This document shows positions 4,190-60,135 of a stretch of 64,000 nt of DNA, piece after piece. Source of the stretch: an uncultured bacterium (GTDB lineage Bacteria; Patescibacteriota; Saccharimonadia; UBA4664); assembly GCA_963720265.1 (NCBI GenBank), contig CAVRET010000002.1:663601-727600 (forward strand), read 5' to 3'. Position numbers and translations under genes: made by a program. The first letter of the stretch is position 1. Every line of letters starts with the position of its first letter. The notes beneath the pieces are model-generated. The model was not told where the DNA came from, did no database searches, and saw only the letters and a program-made list of their open reading frames with translations.

Positions 4190-7100
4190 ATGAAGCAGTA
4201 CGATCCCAAAACCATTGAGCCCAAATGGCAGCAAATCTGGGCCGACACCAATCTGTATGCCGCCATCGACGGTGATTCCAGGCCAAAATATTACATGCTC
4301 ACTGAGTTCCCGTATCCGTCAGCCGCCGGTCTCCACGCCGGCCACGTACGCGAGTACACCATCGGCGACGTCATGGCCCGCCATAAACGTATGCTCGGCC
4401 ACAACGTGCTCTACCCCATGGGCTGGGACGCCTTTGGCCTGCCTACCGAAAATTACGCTATTAAGACCGGCCAGAAGCCAAAGGATGTCACTGCCACCAA
4501 CACGGCCATCTTTCGCCGCCAGATGCAATTGCTTGGCCTCGGTTTCGATTGGTCGCGCGAGGTCAATACCTCGGACCCGGCCTACTACAAATGGACCCAG
4601 TGGCTGTTTTTGCAATTCTTCAAGCACGGCCTCGCCTATCAGGCCGAGATTCCCATTAATTGGTGCCCATTTGAAAAAACCGGCCTGGCCAACGAAGAGG
4701 TGATAAATGGCGTCCACGAGCGCTGCGGCACCCCGGTTGAGAAAAAACTGCTTAAGCAATGGATGCTTAAAATCACCGCCTACGCCGACCGGCTGGTGGA
4801 TGGCTTAAAAACCGTCGACTACCCTCCCCGTATCGCCGACCAGCAAATCAACTGGATCGGCCGCTCTGAGGGTGCCAACATCGACTTCTCCGTTGCCGGC
4901 GAGAAAATTACTGTCTACACTACCCGCCCCGACACGCTCGCCGGCGCTACCTTCCTCGTGCTCGCGCCCGAGCATCCAGCCGTGGCCAAAATTACAAGAC
5001 CGCAGCAGAAAGACCGGGTTGAGCAATACGTTAAGAAAACCCAGTCCGAGACCGATCTAAACCGCCAGGAAGAAAACCGGCCCAAAACCGGTGTCTTTAC
5101 CGGCGTCCATACCATAAATCCCATCACCAAAGCCAGCATGCCGGTCTGGATTGCCGACTATGTGCTGGCCGGCTACGGTACCGGCGCCATTATGGCCGTT
5201 CCTGCCCATGATGAGCGAGATTTTGCCTTTGCCAAGGCCATGAATAAGCAGCTGGGCTACGACGTAGAGCCCACCTATGTTGACATTGAATCAACGCCTC
5301 GGCCGGACCAGCCATTCGAAAACCGCGAAGTTGCCCAGGCTATAGTCAAGCATCCGACCGAGCAAAAGTACCTATTGTTGGAGCTTAAAGCCTGGGACGA
5401 CAAATCTTACAGCTACCCCATGGGAGGAATCCACGACGGCGAAACCCCGACCGAAACGGCAGTGCGCGAGCTGACTGAGGAAACCGGCTACGACCATATC
5501 AGACACACCAGGCCGATCAGTGCGCCTTACTTTGCGGAATTTTATCACCAGCACAAACACGTCAATCGGCGCGCTCACGTCCACAGTGTATTCATTGAAC
5601 TTGCCGATCTTCACCAATCTGGCATTGCACAACACGAACGCGACCTGCACGGGCTTCATTGGCTTACCGGTGACGAGGTGGCCAGCAAGGTACTTGGTAC
5701 CGGCACAAAGAAATTAATGCTCGACTTCCTTGCCGGCCGCGCCACTCCGGCTATCGACATCATACCGGTGATCGACCCTGTCCTCATTCGCGACGATGCG
5801 AGGGATTTGAAGGAATTCAAGCGCCATCGCAAAATCGTCGCCGTCGTCGAAAATGCCGCAGGCGAAATCCTCACTATCAACTGGGGTCCAAAGTATGGCG
5901 GCCGCCTCACCATTGGCGGCACCATCGAAGGCGACGAGGCACCCGAAATTACAGCTATGCGCGAAGTCGCCGAAGAAACCGGTTACCACGACCTCGAAGT
6001 GCTCGAAACCGGCGCCGAAACCATGCATTACAAGTATTATGCCTTCTCTAAAAGGGAAGGGCACGATGTCACCGTCCGGTTCATTCATACGCGCCTTAAA
6101 AGCGACAAACGCAAAGCCCAAGATCTCAACGAATCCGAGAAAAACAAATTCACAGTCGAATGGGCAACACGCAACCAAGCCGAGCGCGAGATCGTTGAGC
6201 CGCTTCACCGCTACGCCATAAACAAATTCATCTTTGGTCATGTCCATGCCGGCGACGGTGTGCTCGTGAACTCCGGCCAATTTGACGGCCTGCAAAACGA
6301 CGAAGCCAGGCGTGCTATTGTCCAGTGGCTGTTTGATCAGGGCCTGGGCCGCCACGCCACCACCTACCGCTTGCGCGACTGGATTTTCTCACGCCAGCAC
6401 TACTGGGGCGAGCCTATCCCCATTATTCACTGCCCCAAAGACGGCGCCGTGCCCGTGCCCGACGACCAGCTGCCCGTAAAGCTGCCCGAGGTTGAGCATT
6501 ATGAACCCACCGATACCGGCGAATCGCCGCTCGCCGCCATTTCCGAATTCGTAAACACTACTTGCCCCAAGTGCGGCGGCCCGGCCAAACGCGAAACCGA
6601 CACCATGCCCAACTGGGCCGGCTCAAGCTGGTACTACCTACGCTACATGGACCCGCACAACGACCACGAATTCGCCGGCCGCGCCAACATGGATTATTGG
6701 GGCATGGTCGATATCTACCTCGGCGGAATGGAGCACACCACGCTCCACTTGCTCTATTCACGTTTTTGGCACCAGTTCTTTTACGATCAGGGCCTCGTGC
6801 CCACGCCGGAACCCTATGCCGCCCGCCGCGGTCAAGGCATAGTTTTGGCTTCGGACGGCCGTAAAATGAGTAAATCACTCGGCAACGTCGTCAACCCCAC
6901 TGACATCGTCGAACGCTACGGCGCCGATACCTTCCGTCTATACATCATGTTCATGGCGCCGTACGACGAAACCACACCCTGGAGTGACGAGCGTTTAAAC
7001 GGTGTCTCGCGCTTCCTCTACCGCGTCTGGGCGCTCGTTCAACAGTTACGTGAACCACAAGCCGAAATCGCGCCGAATGGCATTATCGAGACCGAAGTCG

Positions 7101-7588
7101 ATCGCACTACCCACAAAACCCTCAAAAAGGTCCACGACGACCTCGAAGGGATGCGCTTTAACACTTACGTCAGTGCACTTATGGAATGCGTCAATTACCT
7201 GAACTCGCCGGCGAACCTGACTGCGATTCGCAACCACCCGGCTCTCTCCGAGCGCACCATCCGGACGCTCATTCTCATGCTCGCCCCGGCCGCACCGCAC
7301 CTGGCCGAAGAGCTTTGGCACGAGCTGGGCGAGCAGGGGAGCGTGCATACTGCACCATGGCCCAAATACGACCCCGAGCTCATCAAGGACGACCTCATCA
7401 CCATAGTGGTACAGATAAACGGAAAGGTTCGTGGCCAAACCACGGCCCCGGCCGACGTCACCGAGGCCGACCTCATCAATTTAGCCTCAATCGAGCCCAA
7501 GGTGGCCGCTCTGCTTGATGGCAAAAAGGTTGCAAATACTATTGTCGTGCCCCGCCGCCTCGTCAATTTCGTCGTTAAGGAGAGCTAG
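4190..7588 (+). CDS. leuS: leucyl-tRNA synthetase with an insertion of about 335 aa containing two Nudix domains
   Basis: HAGH (HIGH variant), the editing-domain blocks TTRPDTLAGATFLVLAPEHP and GTGAIMAVPAHDERDF, YRLRDWIFSRQHYWGEPIP, KMSKSLGN, and the anticodon-binding region are all present. Two perfect Nudix boxes, GGIHDGETPTETAVRELTEETGY and [24 protein letters not shown], lie between the editing domain and SGQFDGL. Confidence 0.9.
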   Translation: MKQYDPKTIEPKWQQIWADTNLYAAIDGDSRPKYYMLTEFPYPSAAGLHAGHVREYTIGDVMARHKRMLGHNVLYPMGWDAFGLPTENYAIKTGQKPKDVTATNTAIFRRQMQLLGLGFDWSREVNTSDPAYYKWTQWLFLQFFKHGLAYQAEIPINWCPFEKTGLANEEVINGVHERCGTPVEKKLLKQWMLKITAYADRLVDGLKTVDYPPRIADQQINWIGRSEGANIDFSVAGEKITVYTTRPDTLAGATFLVLAPEHPAVAKITRPQQKDRVEQYVKKTQSETDLNRQEENRPKTGVFTGVHTINPITKASMPVWIADYVLAGYGTGAIMAVPAHDERDFAFAKAMNKQLGYDVEPTYVDIESTPRPDQPFENREVAQAIVKHPTEQKYLLLELKAWDDKSYSYPMGGIHDGETPTETAVRELTEETGYDHIRHTRPISAPYFAEFYHQHKHVNRRAHVHSVFIELADLHQSGIAQHERDLHGLHWLTGDEVASKVLGTGTKKLMLDFLAGRATPAIDIIPVIDPVLIRDDARDLKEFKRHRKIVAVVENAAGEILTINWGPKYGGRLTIGGTIEGDEAPEITAMREVAEETGYHDLEVLETGAETMHYKYYAFSKREGHDVTVRFIHTRLKSDKRKAQDLNESEKNKFTVEWATRNQAEREIVEPLHRYAINKFIFGHVHAGDGVLVNSGQFDGLQNDEARRAIVQWLFDQGLGRHATTYRLRDWIFSRQHYWGEPIPIIHCPKDGAVPVPDDQLPVKLPEVEHYEPTDTGESPLAAISEFVNTTCPKCGGPAKRETDTMPNWAGSSWYYLRYMDPHNDHEFAGRANMDYWGMVDIYLGGMEHTTLHLLYSRFWHQFFYDQGLVPTPEPYAARRGQGIVLASDGRKMSKSLGNVVNPTDIVERYGADTFRLYIMFMAPYDETTPWSDERLNGVSRFLYRVWALVQQLREPQAEIAPNGIIETEVDRTTHKTLKKVHDDLEGMRFNTYVSALMECVNYLNSPANLTAIRNHPALSERTIRTLILMLAPAAPHLAEELWHELGEQGSVHTAPWPKYDPELIKDDLITIVVQINGKVRGQTTAPADVTEADLINLASIEPKVAALLDGKKVANTIVVPRRLVNFVVKES

Positions 7589-16487: not shown

Positions 16488-16883
16488 ATGAAACTTACCA
16501 GACTACTCCCAGCCACCACGGTCTATGCGCACTGTGATCTGCCGTGCGGCGTTTACGATCCCGCCCAGGCCCGTATTGAAGCCGAATCCGTACTCAAAAT
16601 TATGCAAAAATATGGGGATTCAGACGATCAGGTCTTCCGCACCCGTTGCCTTATCCTCAAAGAGGAACGCGCGGAGCTGGCCAAACGACACCTCTGGGTG
16701 CTCTGGACCGATTATTTCAAGCCCGAGCACTTGGAGAAGCACCAAAACCTGCACGATCTATTTTGGCGTGCCACCAAAGCCGCCGGCCAGGCCAAGCATT
16801 CGGTCGATCCGGCCGACGGCCAAAAGCTCCTCGACCTGATCGCGGAGATAACCGATGTCTTTAACGCTACCAAAAAAGCTTAA
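16488..16883 (+). CDS. sodN: nickel superoxide dismutase precursor
   Basis: The Ni-hook HCDLPCGVYDP sits directly after a 14-aa leader (MKLTRLLPATTVYA). Confidence 0.85.
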   Translation: MKLTRLLPATTVYAHCDLPCGVYDPAQARIEAESVLKIMQKYGDSDDQVFRTRCLILKEERAELAKRHLWVLWTDYFKPEHLEKHQNLHDLFWRATKAAGQAKHSVDPADGQKLLDLIAEITDVFNATKKA

Positions 16884-17181
16884 CCTGAGGCGCCTGCGCC
16901 CGCTTGGCCTGTACCGTGTTTCAGGACACAGCATGGAGCCCACGTATGAGCCCGGGGACACATTGCTCGGCCTGCACTGGTTTGCGCCGCGCCGGGGTCG
17001 GGTAGTAGTAGCGCGTACCGCGGGCGGGCGGCCGCTCATCAAGCGCCTCGCGGCTGTCGACCGGGTAAAAGGCACTGTCATACTTCTCGGCGACAATCCG
17101 GCCGCCTCTACTGACTCACGCCATTTTGGGCCGCTCCCGGACAGTGCGCTTGAAGCCGTGATCATTGCGAGACTGCCATGA
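16855..17181 (+). CDS. sodX: NiSOD maturation peptidase (S26 signal-peptidase family)
   Basis: S26 catalytic Ser motif SGHSMEPTY. It lies immediately downstream of sodN, and the two overlap. Confidence 0.75.
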   Translation: MSLTLPKKLNLRRLRPLGLYRVSGHSMEPTYEPGDTLLGLHWFAPRRGRVVVARTAGGRPLIKRLAAVDRVKGTVILLGDNPAASTDSRHFGPLPDSALEAVIIARLP

Positions 17182-17624
17182 GGGTCCATATGCGCAATGC
17201 TTTCTTGCGCGCCTATCGCGAGCTCATCGGTGACCGCCGCCGCCAAATCCCGTTCTGGATTCTGGTCGGGTTTTTGCCAACCTACATAATTGCCCGCACG
17301 CTCGTCGCCACTGATCCAAGCCTCTTTCTCAACATCCATGGGGTGCATGTGCATCACTTCATCTACGGCATCATCGTTTTGGCCGTGGTCGGCTTTATAT
17401 CACTCGTCTCGCCCGAGTTTCCGCCCCGGCCCTGGCTGGCTGCTGCATATGGGGTCGGTCTCGCCCTGTCATTTGACGAATTCGGCATGTGGGTACATCT
17501 CACCACGAATTACAATCTCGACTCATCCGAAGACGTCATGACCGGACTGCTGGTTTTTCTCGTCGTTCTCGTCTACTTCACGCGGCTACTCAGGCGCACC
17601 CTGCGCTTCGTTCGCCACCCCTAG
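17178..17624 (+). CDS. hypothetical membrane protein
   Basis: A 148-aa ORF with four hydrophobic helices. Confidence 0.45.
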   Translation: MRVHMRNAFLRAYRELIGDRRRQIPFWILVGFLPTYIIARTLVATDPSLFLNIHGVHVHHFIYGIIVLAVVGFISLVSPEFPPRPWLAAAYGVGLALSFDEFGMWVHLTTNYNLDSSEDVMTGLLVFLVVLVYFTRLLRRTLRFVRHP

Positions 17625-18198
17625 CCAAATGGAAACCTCCGGTGGCCAAGCTGGAGGGCCGGGCCACCGGAAGCTCTAATCTGACTGGCGCCACCTGGTC
17701 CCTCGCCATGAGCGTAGCCATTGCGTCACTTGCGCCGATCACCCGCAAGCCTTGCTCGAGGCAACCGAGCGCTCGCTCAATTGCCACCTCAACGCGTTCA
17801 TTCGACGCGGTCGGCGAAAAAGCATATGGGCAATGCGCGAACACTGCGAGCCATTGGGCTGCCCATATGAACTCCAAATCGAGCCCCTCGATACCTCTGA
17901 ACATCGAACCGTGAAGCTCGAGCAGCCTATCCTCGGAGTGCCCATCAAAGCGCAGGTCGCGCAGACCAAGCACATTGGTGAATCCACTGTAAGCCGGCTC
18001 GATACCAACGCGCACCAGCCGCTGAATCCGACTGCGATCTCCGAGCCCCCTCAAGCACTCGGGGAGGTTGGCCATAATGCGCTTCAGTTGCCGAGCCGCA
18101 TCCGGATCGGCCTTCGTACTAGTTGCATCAGCAATTGTCATACAATGTCCCTCGCGAGAGTCGATCGTGGATTCGGTCGTGCAGACACTTGTGCCCAC
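17590..18198 (-). CDS. hypothetical protein
   Basis: A 202-aa ORF. A competing + ORF runs 17752..18231. No motif. The strand choice is tentative. Confidence 0.3.
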   Translation of the reverse strand: MGTSVCTTESTIDSREGHCMTIADATSTKADPDAARQLKRIMANLPECLRGLGDRSRIQRLVRVGIEPAYSGFTNVLGLRDLRFDGHSEDRLLELHGSMFRGIEGLDLEFIWAAQWLAVFAHCPYAFSPTASNERVEVAIERALGCLEQGLRVIGASDAMATLMARDQVAPVRLELPVARPSSLATGGFHLARGGERSAGCA

Positions 18199-18314
18199 AA
18201 ACCGGCACTCTACACGGTCCGAACTAGATAGTCCTCAGGGCATTGTCCAAATTCCAATTGCGCGCCGCCCGCGGGTCTTTGGCGATACAACAAACAGCAT
18301 AACCGGCGCCGCTC

Positions 18315-18343
18315 TTGAGCCATCGCGCATTTATCTCTATAAT
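18315..18343 (+). promoter_or_regulatory. sigma70-like promoter for tRNA-Gln (TTGAGC-17-TATAAT)
   Basis: The -35 TTGAGC is at 18315-18320. A 17-nt spacer follows, and the -10 TATAAT is at 18338-18343, about 20 nt upstream of the tRNA. Confidence 0.5.
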
Positions 18344-18364: not shown

Positions 18365-18439
18365 TGGGGCGTGGCCAAGTGGTAAGGCGCTTGATTCTGG
18401 CTCAAGAGATCGTAGGTTCGAATCCTACCGCCCCAGCCA
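18365..18439 (+). tRNA. tRNA-Gln (anticodon CTG), CCA encoded
   Basis: Manual cloverleaf. Acceptor TGGGGCG/CGCCCCA, D-arm GCCAAGTGGTAAGGC, anticodon stem CTTGA/TCAAG with loop TTCTGGC, and T-arm GTAGG-TTCGAAT-CCTAC. It closely resembles E. coli tRNA-Gln. Confidence 0.85.
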
Positions 18440-18456
18440 GGAATTATTTGGCTTTG
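18429..18456 (+). repeat. 28-nt direct repeat, copy 1 (tRNA 3' end CGCCCCAGCCA plus 17 nt of flank)
   Basis: CGCCCCAGCCAGGAATTATTTGGCTTTG is identical to 19524-19551. Homology of about 75% continues for roughly 80 nt downstream. Confidence 0.8.
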
Positions 18457-18654
18457 CAAAGCCACTATTCATAACCGCAGTTTCGTCTGTTTTAATTTAT
18501 CCCTCCGTTAAGCCATTATTTGGTTCGAATCCTATTGCTCCATCTGGACAGCATTGCAGTTTTATGGTAGAATATAGTAATCCTACTCTGGGTTTTCTCT
18601 CTACCCGGCGCCAAGGAGCTTTGTTCACACGTCAAAGAGAGATTTTGGAGACTG

Positions 18655-19317
18655 GTGATGACTCAGACCGACGGTACCGGCCCAATCGCCGTACTGGAGC
18701 CCCGACTCGGCTTCCCCGGCAGCCGCGACACGCGACCACTGTCGGGAAACGTGCCTAGCCTGGACATCCCCGCCCTGCTGGACCTCGGCTATGGCCCACG
18801 CATCGTCCCATTGCGCCGGGCCAGTACACCCATGCCAGACGGCGCGTTCAACGTCGTCCAGGTCCGCAGCGGCCGCATCGACTACTGCTGGAACCCGACC
18901 GTAATGCCTGGTTCCGACCGTCACTGGATCGAACAGGTGGCCGGGCTCGAGCTGACCGCCTTCGTGGCCATCGGCGTTATCGGCGCAGATGGTTTCCGGA
19001 TCCTGCCCAGCAACGTCCGCACCAACAACGGCTACCTGGTGTTCTACACCCGCTGGCCGGTGTTCAAGTCGCCTGGGTCCGACGAGGTCATAAACACCGG
19101 GTTCTACTACCGGCTGATCCGCTTCGATACCTTCGACAACGACCCCGCCAAGGGCGATGTCCTGCGTGTCAGGATTGCTCGGCCGGGTGGTCGCGGCTAC
19201 CTCTTCGGCGAGGACCCTGATACCCATCTGGTGTTCATCAACGACCCCGACCCCTGGATGGGCCTGATCTGGGCGGCCCGAGACGGGTACAGAAGGGAGT
19301 GCCAGGTCAGTCCGTAA
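18655..19317 (+). CDS. hypothetical protein (cassette 1 cargo, high GC)
   Basis: A 220-aa ORF with no recognisable motif. Confidence 0.45.
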   Translation: MMTQTDGTGPIAVLEPRLGFPGSRDTRPLSGNVPSLDIPALLDLGYGPRIVPLRRASTPMPDGAFNVVQVRSGRIDYCWNPTVMPGSDRHWIEQVAGLELTAFVAIGVIGADGFRILPSNVRTNNGYLVFYTRWPVFKSPGSDEVINTGFYYRLIRFDTFDNDPAKGDVLRVRIARPGGRGYLFGEDPDTHLVFINDPDPWMGLIWAARDGYRRECQVSP

Positions 19318-19392
19318 ATCACTACCTCCGCCCGGGAAAGCGACCCCCATCGCTTTCCCGGACTGAGCCAAGTTCTTAACTAGATTAAGCAT

Positions 19393-19590
19393 TTAGTTCA
19401 GTCTCCCACATTTACCGGCTTCGTCTCCATCATCCAGCAATCTGTGGATCTCATTGGTCTCGTGATCAAGCTTTTTTAGCTCATCCCAGGTCAAAGGCTC
19501 CCCAGTTTGGAACAAGACCTCTCGCCCCAGCCAGGAATTATTTGGCTTTGTTAAGCCACCGTTCAACGTCCCAATTTCACTAGTTTTCAT
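19393..19590 (-). CDS. small conserved-family protein A (65 aa, W-L-G...FQT...EI..LL motif)
   Basis: GGAGG RBS 5 nt upstream. It shares KPNNSWLGREVLFQTGE...EIHRLL with three paralogs in the array. Its 5' coding region contains the tRNA-derived repeat. Confidence 0.55.
   Translation of the reverse strand: MKTSEIGTLNGGLTKPNNSWLGREVLFQTGEPLTWDELKKLDHETNEIHRLLDDGDEAGKCGRLN
19524..19551 (+). repeat. 28-nt direct repeat, copy 2 (an att-like copy of the tRNA 3' end inside small gene A)
   Basis: Exact match to 18429-18456. Confidence 0.8.
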
Positions 19591-19673
19591 TTATGCCTCC
19601 GTTAAGACATTATTTAGTTCGAACCCTGCCACTCCCATAGAATCTTGATGTTATTGCCATGTAAGATGAACAC

Positions 19674-20600
19674 ATGAAGGTTCCATACATTGGCAAAGCC
19701 GAATACTGTTACTCGAATTCGACTGCGATGATGCTCGCTTCAATCGGCGAGGATGTGCCGCCCTCAAGGATCGAGGTACTCACCGGTATGGGAGTCGGTG
19801 CATTCAAGGAAAGAAATTCAAACGTTATTTTCTTTGATTGTTGGCATACCGACAAAGGCATAAGTGAAGCCCTGACTTCCCTAGGATTTTCCTTTGATGA
19901 ATCTGCCAACGAGAAACCAGACGACCCACCTTTCGAAGAGTTAAGGAGCGCACTTTCAAATGGACCAGTCGTTCTTGGACCGTTGGACATTGGCCTTCTA
20001 AGTTATCGCCCAAGGAACAGAGGCGCTAATGGCTCGGTGCATTACATCCTGGCTCACGGAATGGACGACCAAAGAGTCTATGTGCACGATCCATGGGGTT
20101 ACCCGTTCGTAAGCATCACGCTTGAGGACTTAAGGGAAGCGTGGGAAGCGCGCCTGATAGAGCAAAAGCATGGCTATTACCGCCATTGGAGCAATCCAGT
20201 CCGCATTGAATCTCCCGCAAACGATGACCTGTTCAGCCGGGCTCTTGCCACTTTCAAGAAAGTCTATGCTGATGGTCAAACCGAGCTGAAGCGCAAAGGC
20301 CATCAAACAGGACCGGAGGCTATCAGCGCGGTTGCGTCAGCGGCCCGGAATAATGGCCTTTCCGATGACGAGGTTTACAATTTAGCTGGTTTCTCACTTC
20401 CATTAGCAGCGAAGCGGGCTTTAGATTATTCATCCTATTTTCAAGAAAGGAACAAAGTAGTTTCAGACGCCAAGTACGAGATGGCCCAACTATTTGGGTC
20501 TGCCCAGACAAAATTGATGGCGAAGGACCTCAACAGCTTCTCGGCCGACCTGGAGAAGTTAGCTGATTTCGAGAACCGGATTGAAGGGATTCTCGGATAA
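19674..20600 (+). CDS. hypothetical protein with a possible papain-like/BtrH-N-like cysteine peptidase fold (cassette 2 cargo, low GC)
   Basis: A 308-aa ORF with a candidate Cys-His-Asp triad: YCYSNSTAMML ... HYILAHGMDDQRVYVHDPW. The length is typical of the BtrH_N plus C-terminal domain architecture. GC is low. Confidence 0.4.
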   Translation: MKVPYIGKAEYCYSNSTAMMLASIGEDVPPSRIEVLTGMGVGAFKERNSNVIFFDCWHTDKGISEALTSLGFSFDESANEKPDDPPFEELRSALSNGPVVLGPLDIGLLSYRPRNRGANGSVHYILAHGMDDQRVYVHDPWGYPFVSITLEDLREAWEARLIEQKHGYYRHWSNPVRIESPANDDLFSRALATFKKVYADGQTELKRKGHQTGPEAISAVASAARNNGLSDDEVYNLAGFSLPLAAKRALDYSSYFQERNKVVSDAKYEMAQLFGSAQTKLMAKDLNSFSADLEKLADFENRIEGILG

Positions 20601-20785
20601 CGCTCGCCTTTGCTCGAAAGGTAATCACTGACTTCGTCCTCCTCTAGCAATTTCCTGATCTCGGCCACATCACAATCTACATCGTCCTCAAAAGTCTGGA
20701 ACACGTAACAGAGCTCCAGCCAAGGACTTATTTTTACGAAGCCATCAAATTGACCCGTTTTAGGGTCGTTTTTTTTGCCGTCCAT
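20441..20785 (-). CDS. small conserved-family protein B. The ORF runs 114 aa as drawn, but its 3' part is antisense to the cassette 2 gene, so the real product may be shorter.
   Basis: N-terminal region KISPWLELCYVFQTFEDDVDCDVAEIRKLLEEDE. An RBS GGAGG sits 5 nt upstream of the ATG at 20785. Confidence 0.5.
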   Translation of the reverse strand: MDGKKNDPKTGQFDGFVKISPWLELCYVFQTFEDDVDCDVAEIRKLLEEDEVSDYLSSKGERYPRIPSIRFSKSANFSRSAEKLLRSFAINFVWADPNSWAISYLASETTLFLS

Positions 20786-20845
20786 GTTATACCTCCATTA
20801 AGCCATTAGTTCGTTCGAATCCGTCCTAAACTCAATAAAAATGGT

Positions 20846-20874
20846 TGACAAATGCAACCAAACATGTTAGATTT
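20846..20874 (+). promoter_or_regulatory. strong sigma70-like promoter TTGACA-17-TAGATT, followed by a 7-bp inverted repeat GTAACAG..CTGTTAC and an SD
   Basis: The hexamers and 17-nt spacing were read directly. The IR GTAACAGGGCTCCTGTTAC lies at about 20888-20906, just before the ATG at 20928. Confidence 0.45.
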
Positions 20875-20927
20875 TCTACAAGGTAACAGGGCTCCTGTTA
20901 CATAGTTCCTACAGGAGAGGAAGCCAC

Positions 20928-21221
20928 ATGGAACCTCTAGTGTTCCTCGAAGTGCTTCTCAAGCAGTTCAAGCGCGTTAGTGATCTGTACGTCCGTGATG
21001 GCTATCGCCTTCGGACCATTCCGGTCCAAGATGACAGCTTTACGAGCTCTGGTCGCACATATCGACTTGAGTTCGAAAAGGAGCGAAGCTCAGCCGGCGA
21101 CGGCAGCGTTACTCTCGATGTCATCGACGCTAAGCTAGTGGTCGATGATCAGGCTCAAGTATTGAGCCTCACTCAACGGAGTTCAGAAGAGTGCTACCCA
21201 TTGGGTAGGCCGGTGAACTAA
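20928..21221 (+). CDS. hypothetical protein (97 aa)
   Basis: An ORF downstream of a good promoter and the GGAGAGGAAG SD. No motif. Confidence 0.45.
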   Translation: MEPLVFLEVLLKQFKRVSDLYVRDGYRLRTIPVQDDSFTSSGRTYRLEFEKERSSAGDGSVTLDVIDAKLVVDDQAQVLSLTQRSSEECYPLGRPVN

Positions 21222-21596
21222 CCAGTAAAATCTGGAAATAGGTTCTCTAATTGTGAATATGCTTGCTTGATAACCGTACGCGTTATCCTCTGTCATACTC
21301 TGTAAAAGTCCCAACCTCTCCAGTGTGAGTCTAAACACTGGCGGCGCCGCATTACCGGGGCCGTTCTTTATTTTTGGCCATCAGGGGTTCGACCGAGCGT
21401 GGCGCAGCTTACTCGCCTGCGGTTGTTCGATAAGTTTGCATATTGCTCTGATATCTTGTGCGGCATCCTTCTCTGTTTGAACTTTCTCCTCAGAAGTTTG
21501 GACTAGGAACCATATCCCCAGCCATATGTCAAGCATAAGCATTAAGTCCTTCCGTGTTATTCATTTTTTTAGTCAATGATTTGTTATTATTAAGCG

Positions 21597-22253
21597 GTGA
21601 TTGACGACCAAGCACAGCTAATCTGGGAATACATGAAGCTAAACCAAGAGCTTAAACCTTGTGACGCCATCTTTGTGCTTGGAAGCATCGATGACAGAAT
21701 TGCAGAATATGGCGCCAAATTATTTTTGGAGGGATATGGCGACTGGTTGATTCTGTCCGGTGGTGAAGCGCACGCCAACGACATGCTCGCCACAAAATGG
21801 GCAGAAAAAACAGAGGCTGAGCACTTTGCTGCCATCGCCAAAAAACTTGGCGTACCAACCGACAAGATTATCACCGAAAACAGAGCAACAAATACGGGCG
21901 AAAACATTACGTTTACCTACGAATTAGTAAGGAGCAGAGGGCTAACACTTCACTCACTGTTGCTGGTTCAAAAGCCCTATATGGAGAGGCGAACGTACGC
22001 GACTTTTCAGAAGCAGTGGCCGGATGAAACCACACGCTTCATTGTTTCGTCTCCTCCAATACCCTACGCAGAATATTTCAATGACTCGCAGCCAAAAGAC
22101 AAGGTCATCAATATTATGGTTGGAGATCTGCAAAGAATCGCGGAGTACCCAAAGCTTGGTTTTCAAACTGCACAGGAAATCCCCGCAAAAGTCTGGACCG
22201 CGTACGAAACACTTGTGGCCAAGGGTTATGATAAACACCTCATGAAGCCCTAA
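21597..22253 (+). CDS. DUF218/YdcF(SanA/ElyC)-like protein (low GC)
   Basis: CDAIFVLGS ... RATNTGENI ... LLVQKPYMERR matches the DUF218 pattern. Confidence 0.6.
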   Translation: MIDDQAQLIWEYMKLNQELKPCDAIFVLGSIDDRIAEYGAKLFLEGYGDWLILSGGEAHANDMLATKWAEKTEAEHFAAIAKKLGVPTDKIITENRATNTGENITFTYELVRSRGLTLHSLLLVQKPYMERRTYATFQKQWPDETTRFIVSSPPIPYAEYFNDSQPKDKVINIMVGDLQRIAEYPKLGFQTAQEIPAKVWTAYETLVAKGYDKHLMKP

Positions 22254-22468
22254 AGCTGCGTTTTACCGCCGTCATTGTCAAGAATCCGTAGTATTTCATC
22301 CACATCACATTCGTCCATTTTGTCAAAAGTTTTAATTATATACCATCTCCCCAGCCATAAAATGTGAACGCCAAATAGTCCCGTAAAATGGTCTATTTTT
22401 GGTTTGGAATGTCGGTAGGGGCGATAGGACGTCCAAACTTCTTGATTTCCATCAGCAGTCATACTCAT
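22250..22468 (-). CDS. small conserved-family protein C (72 aa)
   Basis: HILWLGRWYIIKTFDKMDECDVDEILRILDND aligns with the core of paralogs A, B and D. Confidence 0.5.
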   Translation of the reverse strand: MSMTADGNQEVWTSYRPYRHSKPKIDHFTGLFGVHILWLGRWYIIKTFDKMDECDVDEILRILDNDGGKTQL

Positions 22469-22576
22469 AGACTTGCTTTTTTCTCCAATTTGTGCTAATA
22501 TATGTTCAAGTACTGCCCAGATGGCAGTCTCCTAGTAACGCACTAGGGCCTCTCCTCGGATGGAAGGATACAAGCC

Positions 22577-22924
22577 ATGCGTATTCGCATCACCGAAGGG
22601 CCTTGCGCCGCCGACACCATGTTCCGAGCATGTCTCGCGGCCACCGAGTTCGCCGGTCGCATCGTCGACATAGACATGACCGATACCAGCCCGCCCAGCC
22701 CAGGTCCGCGCTCAATCGAAATCACCGCACTGGTCGCGCTCCAGGGCGGACGCATGGTTGGGATCATGGCTAACTGCCACATAGTTCGCACGGAAGCCGG
22801 TTGGACTGACGGGCTCTGCGACTTCTACGGCCAACCCGCCAACCCAATGCTGGTTCGGTTCCTCTACGACATGGCCCAGCCCAACCCGGAGCCCGTCGTT
22901 TACAAGGCAACCTCCTCTCGGTGA
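22577..22924 (+). CDS. hypothetical protein (115 aa, high GC)
   Basis: An ORF with no recognisable motif. Confidence 0.4.
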   Translation: MRIRITEGPCAADTMFRACLAATEFAGRIVDIDMTDTSPPSPGPRSIEITALVALQGGRMVGIMANCHIVRTEAGWTDGLCDFYGQPANPMLVRFLYDMAQPNPEPVVYKATSSR

Positions 22925-23007
22925 TCAACCTCCCCGCTCTGCGGGGAGGCCCACCCCAAGATTTCAAGAATTTGAAGTTTTAGGATGGGTCAACTAGCGT
23001 CGACTTC

Positions 23008-23109
23008 CTAGAGCAACTCACGAATCATCTCGATCTCGCTCTGAATCACTTTGGGCTGAGAGGAATCATATTCATAAGTTTGGAACACGTAACAGAGCTC
23101 CAGCCATGT
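23008..23109 (-). pseudogene. remnant of a small conserved-family protein D (33 codons, no in-frame ATG)
   Basis: It translates to TWLELCYVFQTYEYDSSQPKVIQSEIEMIRELL. A 26-nt stretch (23081-23106) is identical to 20697-20722 inside paralog B. There is a stop upstream and no start codon. Confidence 0.5.
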
Positions 23110-23457
23110 AGAGCGAATTTCATTTTACAGCTCTTCGGAACTGTTTTTGTCTTTGTTCGCTTAGTCACTGTTAAGGGCTTGGAAGGTCATTCTTGGGCCT
23201 CCATTAAATCATGCTTTTCTGGACATTCGCAGCGATCACATGAGCGAATATCGAGTTTTCTACTGATATTGCACCGTCTTTTATCGAGTACAAACTTGAG
23301 CATCCTCCTCACCGGCTGCTACTGATCATTGACCGCAAGCACTTTCAAGCCTTGCTGCGAGAGCAACAGCGCAGGAATTTTTTGTACCTGCGCATGCCAA
23401 CCGTATGTTACTGCCTCACAGGCATTGCAATCGGACAACGGGTCAAAGCCGTATCGG

Positions 23458-24120
23458 CTATTCCTGCTGCCACTGACACTTTCCGCTACCGTAGTTAATG
23501 GCGCTCAACGCGAGATTAGTGCCGCCAAAGTCACACAGCCATGTCGGCTCGTCGTATTGGCCGTTATCCGAGGCTAGGACGTTCTCAACGTACCAACTCG
23601 TACCATCGCCGCCGGGAACGTTTTGGACGAAGATCGTTGAAGCTGATCCGCACGGCTCCAAGGCCGCTTGACCGTTACCGTGAGCAACCCAGCCCACACA
23701 GTCACTGGTATCAGGAGCGTAGACGAACTCGTCTATATCATCGTTGTAGTAGCGATTGTTCAACCCGTCGCCGACAGTAAACGGACAAGTGTGCGTTACG
23801 CGTCCGTCATTACACAAGCTGGTGCCGCGCGTATAAAAGTCTTCGTGATTATCGCCGCTCTCATACCCGTATGCGGCAACCCTGTTGCCGTAACTTTTGC
23901 CGCCGTTCCAGTCATTAAAGCACTGCTCGCTATACTCGAAGCTGCATATCGATTGCCCGGCTGCGCGAGACTGCGTACGGTAAATTGCCACCCCACTAAC
24001 CACAATTGCGGCCACAAAAATCGCCCCTAAAACCACTTGCGTAGATCGCAACGATAGTCTCTGTGATATTGTTTTTACTTGCGATTTTTGTTTTTTTCGC
24101 AACCCGGTTTTAGTTGGCAT
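23458..24120 (-). CDS. Cys-rich secreted/membrane-anchored hypothetical protein
   Basis: A basic N-terminus plus a TM helix (VVLGAIFVAAIVVSGVAIY), then a domain with ten Cys and many Gly/Asn/Asp/Tyr. Confidence 0.5.
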   Translation of the reverse strand: MPTKTGLRKKQKSQVKTISQRLSLRSTQVVLGAIFVAAIVVSGVAIYRTQSRAAGQSICSFEYSEQCFNDWNGGKSYGNRVAAYGYESGDNHEDFYTRGTSLCNDGRVTHTCPFTVGDGLNNRYYNDDIDEFVYAPDTSDCVGWVAHGNGQAALEPCGSASTIFVQNVPGGDGTSWYVENVLASDNGQYDEPTWLCDFGGTNLALSAINYGSGKCQWQQE

Positions 24121-56887: not shown

Positions 56888-59356
56888 CTAAACTGACATC
56901 CGCCCAAGCGCAGCCAGCACATCGACCCCTGCTCCGAGCACGCCTTGCCACAAATCGCCAACCTTGTCGAGACGCTCCGGCATGGTTCTGAGAGTAAACG
57001 CTTTCGGATCGAGCCGCTCATTCACCTCGCCCCAATCAAGCGGCGTCGACACCGTCGCCCCGGGCACCGGCCGCACGCAATAGGCCACCGCCATGGTCTG
57101 CCCGTGCCCGTTTTGCAAGTAGTCCAGGTAAATTTTGCCCTTGCGCTTATCTGGACTGCGCTCAACGCTCGTCAGCTCGGGCAATCGGCTGTGCAGCAAA
57201 TTCATAATAATCTCGGCCAACTGTTTGCTCTGCTCATACGTATAATTGGCACCCAGCGGAATGCAAACGTGCAGACCCGTCTTGCCGCTTGTCTTGGGAT
57301 AGGCCGGAATCTCATATTCATCAAGCAGCTTATGGGCCGCCATGGCTACTTTCACCACTGCATCAAACCCGCTGGTTTTGGCATCAATATCGAGTAGGCA
57401 ATAATCCGGCCGGCCGAGATTCTGCGTGCACGAGTGCCATGGGTTGAGCTCGATGCAGCCTAAATTAACTAAATATTCCAGAACATCGCGGTCATTGGCC
57501 ACCACCCAACGAATGTCCTTGTTACTCGATTCTGAGTATATTGGCACCGTCTTCACCCAATGCGGCGCCCCTTCCACGTCCTTTTGGAAAAAATGCTGGC
57601 CGCTAATGCCACCGGGATAACGGTTGAGTGATTCGGGTCGGTCTTTGAGATAGGGCAGTAACACCTCACTCACACGATCGTAATAATCCAGCAAATCGCC
57701 CTTGGTAATGCCCTCATCAGGCCAAAATACTTTGTCGCGGTGAGTAATGTGTGCTCGGCTATCCGGCTGATCAGTCTTCGCGCCGGATTTGTATTCCGCA
57801 GCGGCCTGCGGCAATTCGCGTCGCACGTCACGAGCCGACTTGTCTTCGCGCCAACCCACAAAAATCGGTTGTCGCATATGATCGTCCTGCGTCCAGCCGG
57901 CAAAACTCACCTCCGCCACCAATTCTGGCTTCACCCAATGTACTGGCGCGTTGGTTCGAAAGCTTGTCGCAAACGGCGAGGCTTTGCGCTCGAGCGGCTT
58001 CAGCCGGGCATGCGCCTCGGCGAGCGACTGTTCTGTAAACCCGCCACCGGTATGCCCAATGTAGCGCAGCTGGCCGTCCTCGCCGTACAACCCGAGCACT
58101 AGTGCGCCCAGGTCATGCCGGCTGCCCTTCGGCTCAGTGTAGCCGCCTACCACAGCCTCTTGTCGGGCATGGGTCTTGATTTTGAGCCAATCCCGGCTGC
58201 GTTTGCCATCCTGATATGTGCTTACGGCGGATTTAGCCATAATGCCCTCCAGATTCTGCGCCTGAGCCAATGCAAACAGCCTTTTCCCAACGCCGGCCAC
58301 ATGATCGCTCAGGCGCACCCGCGTAAACGGCGCCACTAGCTGCGCCAGCACCTCCTTGCGCCGCGTAAGCGGCCAACCGCGTAAATCGTGCCCGTAGGCA
58401 TACGGCAAATCGAACACATAATACACGAGCGTGCCGCTGCCGGTCCGCTGCCAGTCCTGCAACGCGCCGAAATCCGACCGGCCGGCCTCGTCCACCACGA
58501 CCATTTCACCGTCCAAGATGGCATCCACGACCAGGCCGGACAGCTCCTTGGCCACTAACTGGTACCGCTCTGTGTAATCCTGATCACCGCGAGTGATAAG
58601 CCGCACTCGGCCACCTCCCACATGCGCCATAATCCGGTAGCCGTCCCATTTCACCTCATACAACCACTCCGGATCGTCAAACGGCGTTTCCCTGAGTGTC
58701 GCCAGCATTGGCGCCAACTCCGCCGGCGCCTGAGCCCTGGGTGCATCGTCAAAATCCTGCACAACCGGCTTCCCAGCCGCAATCTCCTCCAGCGTCCGGC
58801 CTGTGGCTGCACTCCGGTTACGCTGCGTCACATCCTCGTCCCGCGCCCACTGGTCTTTCTCGGCTTTAATCAGTAGCCAAGCATTCTCCTCGGCGTCCTT
58901 CATTTTCACCAACGCAAATTCGCCGTTCAACTTCTGCCCGTGCAAAATAAACGTCAAATGCCCGGCATGCACACCGGCCCGGGCTTTTTTATCATCCTCC
59001 TCGCGGTCGCCGGTAGCGCCGAGTGGCTCGTACGTACCTTCATCCCATACCATGACCGTACCACCGCCGTAATTGCCTTTGGGGATCGTACCCTCAAACG
59101 TCCGGTAATCGAGCGGATGATCCTCGACCATCATGGCAAGTCGCTTGTCCTCGGGCCTCAGTGACGGGCCTTTGGGCACGGCCCAGCTCTTGAGTGCGCC
59201 GCCCATCTCCAGTCGAAAATCATAATGCAACTGCGACGCGTCATGCTTTTGCACCACAAACCGCAGGCCGCCGCGCTCATCGCTCTGATCATCGCCGCCG
59301 GTCGGCTCGGGCGTCGTGTCAAACGTACGTTTCGACTGGTACTTGTCCAAACTCAC
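56888..59356 (-). CDS. ligD: multidomain ATP-dependent DNA ligase LigD (3'-phosphoesterase - ligase - polymerase/primase)
   Basis: The N-terminal PE domain has VVQKHDASQLHYDFRLE. The middle ligase domain has the EVKWDGYR motif I. The C-terminal Pol domain has SGKTGLHVCIPL. Confidence 0.9.
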   Translation of the reverse strand: MSLDKYQSKRTFDTTPEPTGGDDQSDERGGLRFVVQKHDASQLHYDFRLEMGGALKSWAVPKGPSLRPEDKRLAMMVEDHPLDYRTFEGTIPKGNYGGGTVMVWDEGTYEPLGATGDREEDDKKARAGVHAGHLTFILHGQKLNGEFALVKMKDAEENAWLLIKAEKDQWARDEDVTQRNRSAATGRTLEEIAAGKPVVQDFDDAPRAQAPAELAPMLATLRETPFDDPEWLYEVKWDGYRIMAHVGGGRVRLITRGDQDYTERYQLVAKELSGLVVDAILDGEMVVVDEAGRSDFGALQDWQRTGSGTLVYYVFDLPYAYGHDLRGWPLTRRKEVLAQLVAPFTRVRLSDHVAGVGKRLFALAQAQNLEGIMAKSAVSTYQDGKRSRDWLKIKTHARQEAVVGGYTEPKGSRHDLGALVLGLYGEDGQLRYIGHTGGGFTEQSLAEAHARLKPLERKASPFATSFRTNAPVHWVKPELVAEVSFAGWTQDDHMRQPIFVGWREDKSARDVRRELPQAAAEYKSGAKTDQPDSRAHITHRDKVFWPDEGITKGDLLDYYDRVSEVLLPYLKDRPESLNRYPGGISGQHFFQKDVEGAPHWVKTVPIYSESSNKDIRWVVANDRDVLEYLVNLGCIELNPWHSCTQNLGRPDYCLLDIDAKTSGFDAVVKVAMAAHKLLDEYEIPAYPKTSGKTGLHVCIPLGANYTYEQSKQLAEIIMNLLHSRLPELTSVERSPDKRKGKIYLDYLQNGHGQTMAVAYCVRPVPGATVSTPLDWGEVNERLDPKAFTLRTMPERLDKVGDLWQGVLGAGVDVLAALGRMSV

Positions 59357-60135
59357 TTGACCTGCGCCTCCAAGCTCGCTTTAAGTGCGGCCATCAGATC
59401 GGCCGGAGCTTTGGCCGTCGCTTCGTGCGGCGCTGCTTTCTCCTTACCCTTCGCCTTAGCCTCGATCCGTGCCTGCAGCTCCTCAGTATAGGTATCGTGA
59501 AAATCCTCAGGGATAAACGGTTGCGTTTGCTGATCGACCAGCTCAACGGCCAGGTCGAGTTCACGCTCATTCGCTACATCTTTTCCCGGTAACGTAAGGC
59601 TGCCCGGGGTACGCAAATCAGCCGGGAACCGCATTTGGTTTAGCACGAGCACCTGGCCCACAGTCTTCAAAATCGCCAAATGTTCCCGTTCGCGCAGCAC
59701 AAACGTTGCCACCGCCAGTCGATTCCGCTTACGCAAAGCCTCGCGCAAAAGCGCATATGCTTTCTCGCCGCCCTTGCCCGGCTCCAGATAGTATGGCCGT
59801 TCCAAATACCGCACATCAATCTGCTGCTCGTCGCAAAACTCCACAATATCAATCGTCGTCGTTTTCTTTACGTCCGCGGCTTCGAAGTCCTCGTCCGTAA
59901 TTCGCACAAATTCGCCTTTCTCGTATTCGTAACCCTTAACGATCTCGCTAAACGGCACCTCTTTGTCCTCGGCTTTGCAGATCTTGGCATAGCGAATGGG
60001 GGACAGGTCTTTTTTGTGTAACATGTGCAAATCAATCCCGTCGCGCGTCTCCGCGCCGGAATAGAGCTTCACCGGAATATTAATAAGCCCAAACGAGATT
60101 GCCCCAGACCAGATCGCGCGCATTGCATCCTCCAA
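59353..60135 (-). CDS. ku: Ku protein (non-homologous end joining)
   Basis: MRAIWSGAISFGLINIPVKLY is the canonical Ku N-terminus. Its 4-nt overlap with ligD suggests operon organisation. Confidence 0.9.
   Translation of the reverse strand: MEDAMRAIWSGAISFGLINIPVKLYSGAETRDGIDLHMLHKKDLSPIRYAKICKAEDKEVPFSEIVKGYEYEKGEFVRITDEDFEAADVKKTTTIDIVEFCDEQQIDVRYLERPYYLEPGKGGEKAYALLREALRKRNRLAVATFVLREREHLAILKTVGQVLVLNQMRFPADLRTPGSLTLPGKDVANERELDLAVELVDQQTQPFIPEDFHDTYTEELQARIEAKAKGKEKAAPHEATAKAPADLMAALKASLEAQVK

Follow-up and report, generated by a model that had tools for sequence, protein, structure and literature searches.

Downstream of tRNA-Gln(CTG) in the genome of an uncultured bacterium of the Saccharimonadia (UBA4664, GenBank assembly GCA_963720265.1), a series of small gene units is punctuated by copies of the 3' end of the tRNA. 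In the reading favored here, to which we give a probability of roughly two in three, these units form a tandem array of at least five recombinase-less, one-gene mini-cassettes (0.75-1.2 kb), built by site-specific recombination at the tRNA-Gln 3' end. The array lies in a stretch of 64,000 nt of contig CAVRET010000002.1 (positions 663,601 to 727,600), hereafter called the window, and coordinates are those of the window unless stated otherwise.

A tRNA-Gln at the head of the array had been proposed in a first-pass annotation made from the letters of the sequence, and was confirmed by ARAGORN and Rfam. Using a repeat finder and MAFFT, six copies of a module are recovered from this point onward, and their sole invariant block is the 9-mer C(C/T)CCAGCCA (the core), equal to the tRNA's own 3' end. 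The six cores, numbered c1 to c6 from tRNA-Gln onward, thus repeat the last 9 nt of an intact tRNA-Gln, and delimit five intervals whose positions and lengths are given in Table 1. The chromosomal attachment point would be c1, at the very end of the tRNA.

On the + strand, each unit runs from a core and an N-half, through an intergenic region and the cargo gene, to a C-half and the following core. These halves are those of a small open reading frame (ORF) on the minus strand, in which the core reads TGG CTG G(G/A)G (Trp-Leu-Gly/Glu) and lies mid-ORF at every internal joint: the N-half is the part upstream of W-L-G, and the C-half the part from W-L-G onward. An exact 28-nt repeat spanning the tRNA end had been reported between the first two modules, and it is indeed present (18429-18456 and 19523-19550, the second position having been given one nucleotide off), with about 3e-8 such repeats expected by chance in 64 kb. 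Homology beyond this repeat extends over 110 nt with 81% identity between copies 1 and 2, slightly better than the initial estimate of about 75% over some 80 nt. The five module copies originally listed are all real, but a sixth, at approximately 21483-21545, had been overlooked. Similarly, a ribosome-binding site (RBS) had been attributed to each module: the motif CCTCC(G/A)TTAAG is found in copies 1-3 and is decayed in copy 6, but does not occur in copies 4 and 5.

Just past this motif, about 85 nt to the right of c1-c3, a second and decayed copy of the T-arm and acceptor 3' strand is observed (18523-18548, 19617-19640 and 20811-20830; e.g. GGTTCGAATCCTATTGCTCCATCTGG). Such T-arm-like copies also occur in three related loci presented below (L003, L028 and L030), lying in L030 about 60 nt past a decayed C-half. 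They may derive from a tRNA end displaced long ago, or represent a nested att site.

Variation behind tRNA-Gln in related genomes

Four relatives share both the synteny and the tRNA with the window while differing in contents. One of them, L003, is a metagenomic contig found by exact-sequence look-up of members of the small-ORF family, and the others (L025/L026, L028 and L030) were found via the 148-aa membrane protein encoded on the flank. Its homologues come from sources that label them Patescibacteria or Candidatus Saccharimonas, and when GTDB species genomes were scanned with the small-ORF motif, the matches fell almost exclusively in metagenome-assembled genomes of Saccharibacteria, which assigns the window to this group. 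In L003, the gene order is that of the window (S16, KhpA, TrmD, beta-lactamase-like protein, Ni-superoxide dismutase, signal peptidase, 148-aa membrane protein, tRNA-Gln(CTG)), and the same tRNA sequence heads the variable loci of L003, L025, L026 and L028. By the 148-aa marker, L025 is the closest relative, with a protein 80% identical to that of the window.

The comparison with L003 places the breakpoints at the cores. In blastn alignments, the housekeeping flanks are 67-76% identical, and the unit carrying the peptidase gene (19504-20733) is 83.5% identical, in a block of homology that stops within about 20 nt of c2 and c3. On either side of this block the contents change: L003 holds a CN_hydrolase unit where the window has cassette 1 with its high-GC gene, and a 122/158-aa ORF and a 377-aa ORF in place of cassettes 3-5. 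In L028, the same tRNA is followed by a module 83% identical to window copy 1 with a different cargo, and in L030 by a short unit. A strictly empty site was not found among the relatives examined. Comparison of the tRNA-Gln locus across genomes, as the first-pass annotation had suggested, therefore returned arrays that are not identical between relatives, and a junction present at the tRNA end.

Variation extends to the upstream side of the tRNA as well. About 700 nt (17590-18336) separate it from the 148-aa membrane-protein gene and contain a 202-aa minus-strand ORF without family match; this stretch is missing from L003 and shows no DNA-level conservation in L025, and other ORFs of 130-179 aa occupy the position in L025, L026 and L030. 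An independent assembly of the same genome (Logan contig L001, from ERR11523669) is 100% identical to the window over 11 kb and ends at 18414, inside the T-arm of tRNA-Gln. This end point could correspond to a branch of the assembly graph at the locus, that is, to heterogeneity in the population.

Units of the same kind are found at tRNA-Gln(TTG), either single, as in L015 (777 nt, with a 188-aa membrane-protein-like ORF without family match) and L017 (889 nt, with a Peptidase_S51 gene), or as an array of two in L021. In these three loci, the tRNA 3' end continues directly into the N-half, and the C-half stands at the far end. Direct repeats measure 9-12 nt overall and 11-12 nt for the two single units (CCCCAGCCATA in L015, TCTCCCCAGCCA in L017), CCCCAGCCA being the minimum. 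Past the distal core of L015 and L021 lies a strong terminator hairpin, like the one found directly after tRNA-Gln in L006. This layout corresponds to the attL and attR left by site-specific integration at the end of a tRNA, the tRNA itself remaining intact. An array or a unit begins exactly at the tRNA end in seven tRNA-Gln loci (the window, L003, L028 and L030 for CTG; L015, L017 and L021 for TTG); in L006, cores recur behind tRNA-Gln(CTG), but the terminator of the tRNA comes first.

Longer arrays exist. In L022 (ENA ERZ25039593 contig_114701, 1-20144), small units extend over at least 20 kb, with NUDIX (three genes), hydrolase, glucokinase, PIN/RHH, YafQ/RelB and other cargo, together with an rve_3 transposase fragment. 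Some types of unit recur, and occupy different positions in different arrays: the S51 peptidase is found in L017 and L006, MazE-Fic in L002 (contig_114700, from the same sample as L022), L009 and the P0036 contig, and Hydrolase_3 in L021 and the P0036 contig. Taken together, breakpoints at the cores, variation among relatives and the single insertions of L015 and L017 bear out the initial proposal of serial integration at a tRNA 3' end, or of an integron-like array, with no local integrase.

Two side observations concern the ends of such units. Several joints of L022 are formed by 25-nt tRNA-Gln 3' remnants instead of C-halves, and L002 is alike, so that two kinds of left arm coexist in these arrays. 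In L009, a tRNA-Trp(CCA) (2228-2303 of that contig) ends with TCTCCCCTGCCA, one base off the core, 400 nt from a decayed C-half, and the neighboring MazE-Fic unit ends, across the cassette, in a decayed tRNA-Gln 3' remnant (2690-2718); the presence of the tRNA-Trp is probably a coincidence, although it may still be a second target.

Chimeric ORFs and DNA-level constraint at the joints

The ORFs that cross the internal joints of the window measure 65, 114, 53 and 72 aa, to which is added the c6 copy, interrupted by stop codons. In copy 1, only the part upstream of the core remains, fused to the tRNA and with its ATG mutated. At each joint, the cassette nearer the tRNA contributes the C-half, and the cassette that follows contributes the N-half. 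Comparison with L003 separates them further: at joint 2 the N-half is conserved (MKTSEIGTLNGGLTKPNNS in the window, MKMKENRTINCGLTKPNNS in L003) and the C-halves differ, and at joint 3 the C-half is conserved (..CDVAEIRKLLEED) and the N-halves differ. Since the halves are conserved separately, the small ORFs are chimeric; and since each of them straddles a joint, with halves that segregate with different cassettes, the small ORF is not the partner of a cargo gene. The idea that each cassette is paired with a member of one small-protein family, put forward in the first-pass annotation, is thus abandoned, the more so as some of the N-parts are recombinase stubs (see below). Structure prediction for the junction protein (AlphaFold2, 39-sequence alignment) returns a low-confidence model with a beta-hairpin and a helix (pLDDT 61, pTM 0.22).

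The joint is constrained at the DNA level. Among 26 unique C-halves, information at codon positions 1/2/3 amounts to 1.16/1.40/1.18 between nt 10 and 36 from the core, and to 0.42/0.59/0.12 between nt 37 and 60. Over the first 27 nt, third positions are as informative as first positions, so that synonymous sites are conserved, as expected for a recombination site, and the low information at third positions further out indicates that the acidic tail evolves like a protein. In peptide-defined joints, a set that includes the matches of two scans whose patterns left the Leu and Gly codons free, Leu is encoded by CTG in 30 cases out of 30 and Gly by GGG in 29 out of 30. Moreover, C-halves that face an unrelated flank (L008, L009 and L007-5731) have kept the DNA-constrained part, and their tail is scrambled. 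In our reading of these patterns, the joint would be a recombination half-site overlapping a truly translated peptide.

In this peptide, the tail, a hydrophobic strand (WFLVQTF) precedes an acidic helix (D-I-x-E-I-R-x-L-L-D/E). An exhaustive hidden Markov model search retrieved 521 clusters at 50% identity, and the members listed are nearly all of 38-140 aa, with a C-terminal match and hypervariable N-termini. On the other side of the core, a canonical right arm of about 95 nt is widespread, and places directly after the tRNA a hairpin with a U-run that would be a replacement terminator. It carries the motif GTTTGGR at -20 and +53 and its inverse, YCCAAAC, at +83; on the + strand of the window, four of the five copies of GTTTGGA fall within the array. 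As regards the extent of the site, the common core is 9 bp long and about 27 nt are conserved on its left, and the motifs at +53 and +83 fall outside a 50-bp site.

A recombinase gene on the joint

Which type of enzyme could act on such a site? In L025, an intact large serine recombinase (LSR) of 527 aa (Resolvase, Recombinase and Zn_ribbon_recom domains) abuts the identical tRNA-Gln(CTG) on the opposite strand. Its gene takes the position of the N-half and crosses the core in the frame of the small ORF, and the protein ends in ...NELRPIWLGR-stop, these last codons being the antisense of the tRNA 3' end. The LSR gene is followed by over 9 kb of further genes of the element, among them Replic_Relax, DUF3768 and two DNA methyltransferases. 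The second contig of this pair, L026, is 99.99% identical to L025 and diverges inside the LSR gene.

Traces of the same gene are found at other joints. The stub of L030 (MDIKTIKNDPADRYVEGHFELENELRPIWLGR) shares 75% identity with the 32 C-terminal residues of the L025 LSR and has its own GGAGG and ATG, and L014 carries a similar stub. In the window, the N-half of junction ORF 3 (MDGKKNDPKTGQFDGFVKISP) resembles the C-terminus of the L025 LSR, and the right arms of c3 (MDGKKNDP..) and of the decayed c6 copy align with the LSR 3' end. By these alignments, several N-halves are stubs of the 3' end of an LSR gene.

Searches for an excised or viral form gave no match, whether viral contigs were scanned at the DNA level with the coding motif, both arms and the LSR-stub motif, or at the protein level with the LSR; the tail peptide likewise had no match in phage and plasmid collections.

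Proposed mechanism and alternative explanations

In the proposed mechanism, crossover would occur in the 9-bp core CCCCAGCCA, which covers the acceptor 3' strand, the discriminator base and CCA. On the side of the element, this core would sit in the 3' end of the recombinase gene (attP in the gene), read on the minus strand as Trp-Leu-Gly. Integration would then split this gene: its 3'-terminal stub, the N-half, would meet the tRNA and end with WLGR-stop in the tRNA antisense, and the C-half, an acidic and conserved tail of about 40 aa (WLGRWFLVQTFE..DIREIRELLDE), would be sent to the far end of the element. Of such a partition, the integrated form is seen in L025, and the internal joints are in-frame stub-plus-tail ORFs. 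In stacked units, every internal joint would combine one unit's stub with its neighbor's tail into a chimeric ORF. The cassettes of the window would have lost the recombinase body, and kept the att arms and one cargo gene. LSR-type recombination would lie behind the joints, the best candidate for the acting enzyme being an LSR like that of L025, which would work in trans if the cassettes are still mobilizable, and homologous recombination between arms may add to tandem growth. In the excised form, the tail would be a functional extension of the recombinase and, more speculatively, may modulate it, by analogy with the integration-dependent immunity of phage BPs.

This mechanism can be extended to a gene-capture system analogous to integrons but based on an LSR, at tRNA-Gln in Saccharibacteria, in which the enzyme would be tailed when excised and tail-less when integrated, as a switch of activity or directionality, with cassettes moved in trans and stacked. 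We hold this extension to be tentative, and rather doubtful.

Several observations weigh against LSR-driven assembly. In agreement with the first-pass annotation, no recombinase is encoded between 18.4 and 24.1 kb, nor was any recombinase domain found among the scanned ORFs of the window (those of at least 180 aa, except for one of 1132 aa at 4190-7588 and some that overlap others). In ORFs of at least 120 aa, a screen for tyrosine- and serine-recombinase motifs, covering the window and the loci retrieved before L025, was equally negative, and no recombinase stands next to the other arrays inspected; mobilization in trans is therefore unproven. Besides, a C-terminal fragment of a tyrosine integrase in L029 (PF00589, profile positions 87-170) crosses a WLE core in frame into a C-half. 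Together with the L025 LSR, this fragment links more than one recombinase family with the same tail, and the LSR is thus not the sole candidate. A full-length fusion of recombinase and tail is absent among the 150 matches listed in the exhaustive protein search (521 clusters); read-through of the LSR into the C-half would be a property of the excised form, and the attR of the L025 element is located beyond the sequence covered. Within the array, promoter-like and terminator-like consensus matches are not enriched over shuffles. Finally, stacking needs attP x attL recombination. Well-studied phiC31-type LSRs recombine attP x attB only, and CcrAB-type enzymes are reported to tolerate recombination with occupied sites, so either a relaxed, CcrAB-like enzyme or homologous recombination would be required.

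How else could such an array have arisen? Among the alternatives, decay in situ survives best, though we consider it unlikely: complete elements would each have lost their own recombinase, and the cassettes, which never moved as such, would now be immobile relics. This explanation accommodates the variable length of the recombinase stubs (divergence inside the LSR in L026, the fragment in L029, 32 codons in L030, c6 in the window), the fact that no array has a local recombinase, and the decay of window copies c1 and c6. It accounts less easily for the uniformly small size of the units, both in the window (0.75-1.2 kb) and for the single units of L015 and L017 (0.78-0.89 kb), or for the finding, in independent contigs, of one 95-nt canonical right arm linked with at least six distinct cargo genes. 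The same types of cargo cassette also turn up in different places and behind different tRNA-Gln isoacceptors, the peptidase cassette is more alike between genomes than the housekeeping flanks, and long recombinase pseudogenes are rare among the approximately 30 joints inspected; all of this weighs against decay alone.

Another possibility, which we rank somewhat lower still, is that a tyrosine integrase with arm-type sites acts at the locus. The module of about 150 bp would then be a lambda-like attP, composed of a left arm, the core and a right arm bearing three GTTTGGAC motifs, and the L025 LSR would be an unrelated user of the same tRNA end. The L029 fragment, which runs across the core into the tail, is an argument for it, and the GTTTGGR/YCCAAAC motifs at fixed positions (-20, +53 and +83) resemble arm-type binding sites; in addition, the 25-nt tRNA 3' remnants that form some joints (L002, L022 and L009) are of the classical kind that tRNA-targeting tyrosine integrases leave. 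However, no intact tyrosine integrase was seen in any of the seven loci of tRNA-Gln that were inspected, in contrast to the LSR, of which an intact copy exists, and the stubs of L030, L014 and the window are derived from an LSR. As for the L029 fragment, it is high in GC and truncated, and its contig has no tRNA.

It is improbable that the array arose without any site-specific recombination, as a family of paralogous gene pairs shuffled by homologous recombination or gene conversion, for instance after natural transformation, with an incidental match to the tRNA. The modules do provide 40-110 nt of homology, Saccharibacteria are reported to be naturally transformable, and homologous recombination could give a tandem stacking that is beyond a strict LSR. 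This explanation is contradicted by the first copy being the tRNA end itself at seven tRNA-Gln loci of both CTG and TTG isoacceptors, by single insertions that share only 9-12 nt between unrelated flanks, by fixed synonymous sites in the core codons (CTG in all 30 joints), and by a recombinase gene placed exactly on the joint.

Least of all can the array be read, as the first-pass annotation had cautiously done, as toxin/immunity or defense pairs in which a cognate small protein accompanies a variable cargo gene, because, even if related arrays carry toxin-antitoxin cargo (Fic/VbhA, MazE-Fic, PIN/RHH and YafQ/RelB), this cargo supplies its own antitoxin, the halves of each small ORF belong to different cassettes, their N-termini are hypervariable or recombinase stubs, and the small ORFs have no match in PADLOC, Pfam or NCBIfam.

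Cargo genes and neighboring features

Each of the five cassettes holds one cargo gene on the + strand. The strong differences in GC that had been noticed between them are real, and Pfam retrieved the two families initially suggested, a Peptidase_C39_2/BtrH_N protein and a DUF218 protein; otherwise, Pfam, PADLOC and NCBIfam gave nothing useful for the small ORFs and the cargo (Table 1). At third codon positions, GC reaches 0.82 in cargo 1 (+ frame) and 0.74 in cargo 5, as compared with about 0.6-0.68 in host genes, which suggests, from composition, that both come from foreign high-GC donors. Saccharibacteria live on Actinobacteria. A comparable high-GC cargo gene, of 125 aa, is carried by L002.

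Table 1. Coordinates of the tRNA-Gln array and its parts in the window.
Feature	Position	Strand	Description
tRNA-Gln(CTG)	18365-18439	+	RF00005, 70 bits
Core c1	18431-18439		CCCCAGCCA; terminal 9 nt of tRNA-Gln(CTG)
Cassette 1	18440-19533		1094 nt; ends with C-half and core c2
N-half stub, cassette 1	18440-18496		Decayed, ATG now ATT; fused to tRNA
RBS motif, cassette 1	18502-18506		
T-arm-like copy, cassette 1	18523-18548		
Cargo 1	18655-19317	+	220 aa; no family match; GC 0.65
Hairpin, cassette 1	19326-19367		
Junction ORF 2	19393-19590	-	65 aa; N-half MKTSEIGTLNGGLTKPNNS from cassette 2, W-L-G and C-half from cassette 1
Core c2	19525-19533		
Cassette 2	19534-20722		1189 nt
Cargo 2	19674-20600	+	308 aa; Peptidase_C39_2/BtrH_N/YobF_C-like (Pfam, weak); GC 0.50
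Junction ORF 3	20441-20785	-	114 aa; conserved part ~20600-20785; N-half MDGKKNDPKTGQFDGFVKISP
Core c3	20714-20722		
Cassette 3	20723-21524		802 nt
Cargo 3	20928-21221	+	97 aa; no family match; GC 0.52
Junction ORF 4	21381-21542	-	53 aa; short N-half MLMLDI, tail WLGIWFLVQTSEE
Core c4	21516-21524		
Cassette 4	21525-22357		833 nt
Cargo 4	21597-22253	+	DUF218 (Pfam, E = 2e-20); GC 0.47
Junction ORF 5	22250-22468	-	72 aa; canonical full-length form, ..EVWTSY..HSKPK..ILWLGRWYIIKTFD..DVDEILRIL..
Core c5	22349-22357		
Cassette 5	22358-23106		749 nt; C-half at 23008-23106
Cargo 5	22577-22924	+	115 aa; no family match; GC 0.62
Core c6	23098-23106		CTCCAGCCA
Decayed stub of LSR gene 3' end	23107-23215	-	In-frame stops; aligns to L025 LSR gene 3' end and L030 stub
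Hairpin and T-run in decayed stub	23127-23149		Fold prediction
RBS-like motif in decayed stub	23198-23209		CCTCCATTAAAT

The decayed LSR stub past c6 may mark an older unit that has lost its boundary, possibly reaching over a 220-aa ORF at 23458-24120. The hairpin located after c6 had been considered as the native terminator of the tRNA, and hence the end of the array; this was dropped, as the alignment places the hairpin within the decayed stub.

Some other features of the window and its relatives were noted. Upstream of the array, a Ni-superoxide dismutase gene is followed by an S26-type maturation peptidase gene (16488-17181), a pair kept in all syntenic relatives. Adjacent genes for LigD (phosphoesterase, ligase and primase-polymerase domains) and Ku (56888-60135) represent a complete pair for non-homologous end joining in a genome of about 1.1 Mb. 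Further on (61648-63808) stand two neighboring genes whose products both combine an N-terminal dockerin type I domain with a glycoside hydrolase family 12 domain, and a dockerin/beta-helix protein is encoded within the array of L028.

Significance and comparison with known systems

With their genomes of about 1 Mb, Saccharibacteria and other Patescibacteria gain genes by routes that are little documented; full-text literature searches returned no description of a system of this kind in either group. If the proposed reading is correct, the cassette store at tRNA-Gln would be a concrete and testable route of gene flux in these epibionts, and its recurrence is attested by the tail-family clusters in public data (521) and by arrays of at least 20 kb with toxin-antitoxin, NUDIX, hydrolase and peptidase cargo. 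In the more tentative, integron-like extension of this reading, it would provide genomes of this size with a compact and exchangeable store of accessory genes, including high-GC genes that may come from other organisms. Serine recombinases are widely used in genome engineering, and a gene of this class with an att site embedded in its 3' end would represent a regulatory layout new to these enzymes. In a member of the group that can be transformed, such a minimal and naturally modular "landing pad plus cassette" could be exploited as a genetic tool. Should the cassettes be relics only, the locus would still be a clear example of integration hot spots decaying into gene arrays.

Different known systems share some of these features. 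The SCC and pseudo-SCC islands of staphylococci are units of 5-60 kb integrated by CcrAB LSRs at the 3' end of rlmH/orfX. They resemble the present array in tandem units at the 3' end of a conserved gene with a short repeat at each joint, in the presence of recombinase-less units beside recombinase-bearing ones and, under the proposed mechanism, in the use of an LSR. In contrast, the target here is the 3' end of tRNA-Gln, the units hold one gene in about 1 kb, the att site would lie within the 3' coding end of the recombinase gene, whose conserved tail would be split off, and the host has a Saccharibacteria-type genome of about 1.1 Mb. Streptococcal cis-mobilizable elements (CIMEs) are att-flanked and recombinase-less, and can be mobilized in cis or in trans by the integrase of a related element, giving rise to tandem arrays. 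Such accretion with integrative and conjugative elements likewise places recombinase-less, att-flanked elements next to the 3' end of a conserved gene, but involves tyrosine integrases and larger units, and no coding joint.

Chromosomal super-integrons consist of long arrays rich in toxin-antitoxin cassettes. Integrons, and clusters of attC sites lacking integrases (CALIN), are similar in their single-gene cassettes of about 1 kb, their recurring site, their arrays without a linked integrase and, as in L022, their long toxin-antitoxin-rich arrays. Unlike integrons, the array described here has no IntI or attI, with no Phage_integrase match in the scanned ORFs of the window; it is anchored on a tRNA, and its candidate enzyme is a serine recombinase. 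The features of attC (a GTTRRRY core and an R''/L''-L'/R' palindrome) were not seen at the joints by inspection and repeat search, no dedicated attC search having been run; what the joints share is CCCCAGCCA plus asymmetric arms. Capture of the dif/Xer type (integrative mobile elements exploiting Xer, or pdif modules) was set aside, as inspection of the conserved arms, without a formal search, gave no dif-like XerD arm.

Integration within a coding sequence has precedents. In SSV1, the integrase gene is partitioned near its 5' end on integration. In mycobacteriophage BPs, attP is located in the repressor gene, and the repressor made from the prophage is 33 residues shorter and devoid of a degradation tag (PMC4557955). 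As in these cases, attP would lie in a coding sequence and integration at a tRNA would alter a C-terminus, about 40 residues being exchanged here for Arg-stop. The split gene would nevertheless be that of a recombinase (an LSR, and elsewhere a tyrosine-integrase fragment), interrupted near its 3' end, and the tail is acidic and helical, not ssrA-like.

Tycheposons of Prochlorococcus, finally, integrate at tRNA genes, carry partial tRNA repeats, and push older elements inward (bioRxiv 10.1101/2020.12.28.424599). Degenerate remnants and extra partial tRNAs similarly form a variable island in a streamlined genome. Tycheposons are nonetheless multi-gene elements with their own integrase and replication modules, whereas the cassettes described here have one gene and none of these hallmark genes, with a repeat confined to 9-12 nt where the tRNA ends on its 3' side, and a joint that is coding. 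What sets the tRNA-Gln array apart from every analogue listed is the combination of a core at the 3' end of a tRNA, single-gene units, and a coding joint drawn from the recombinase gene's own 3' end.

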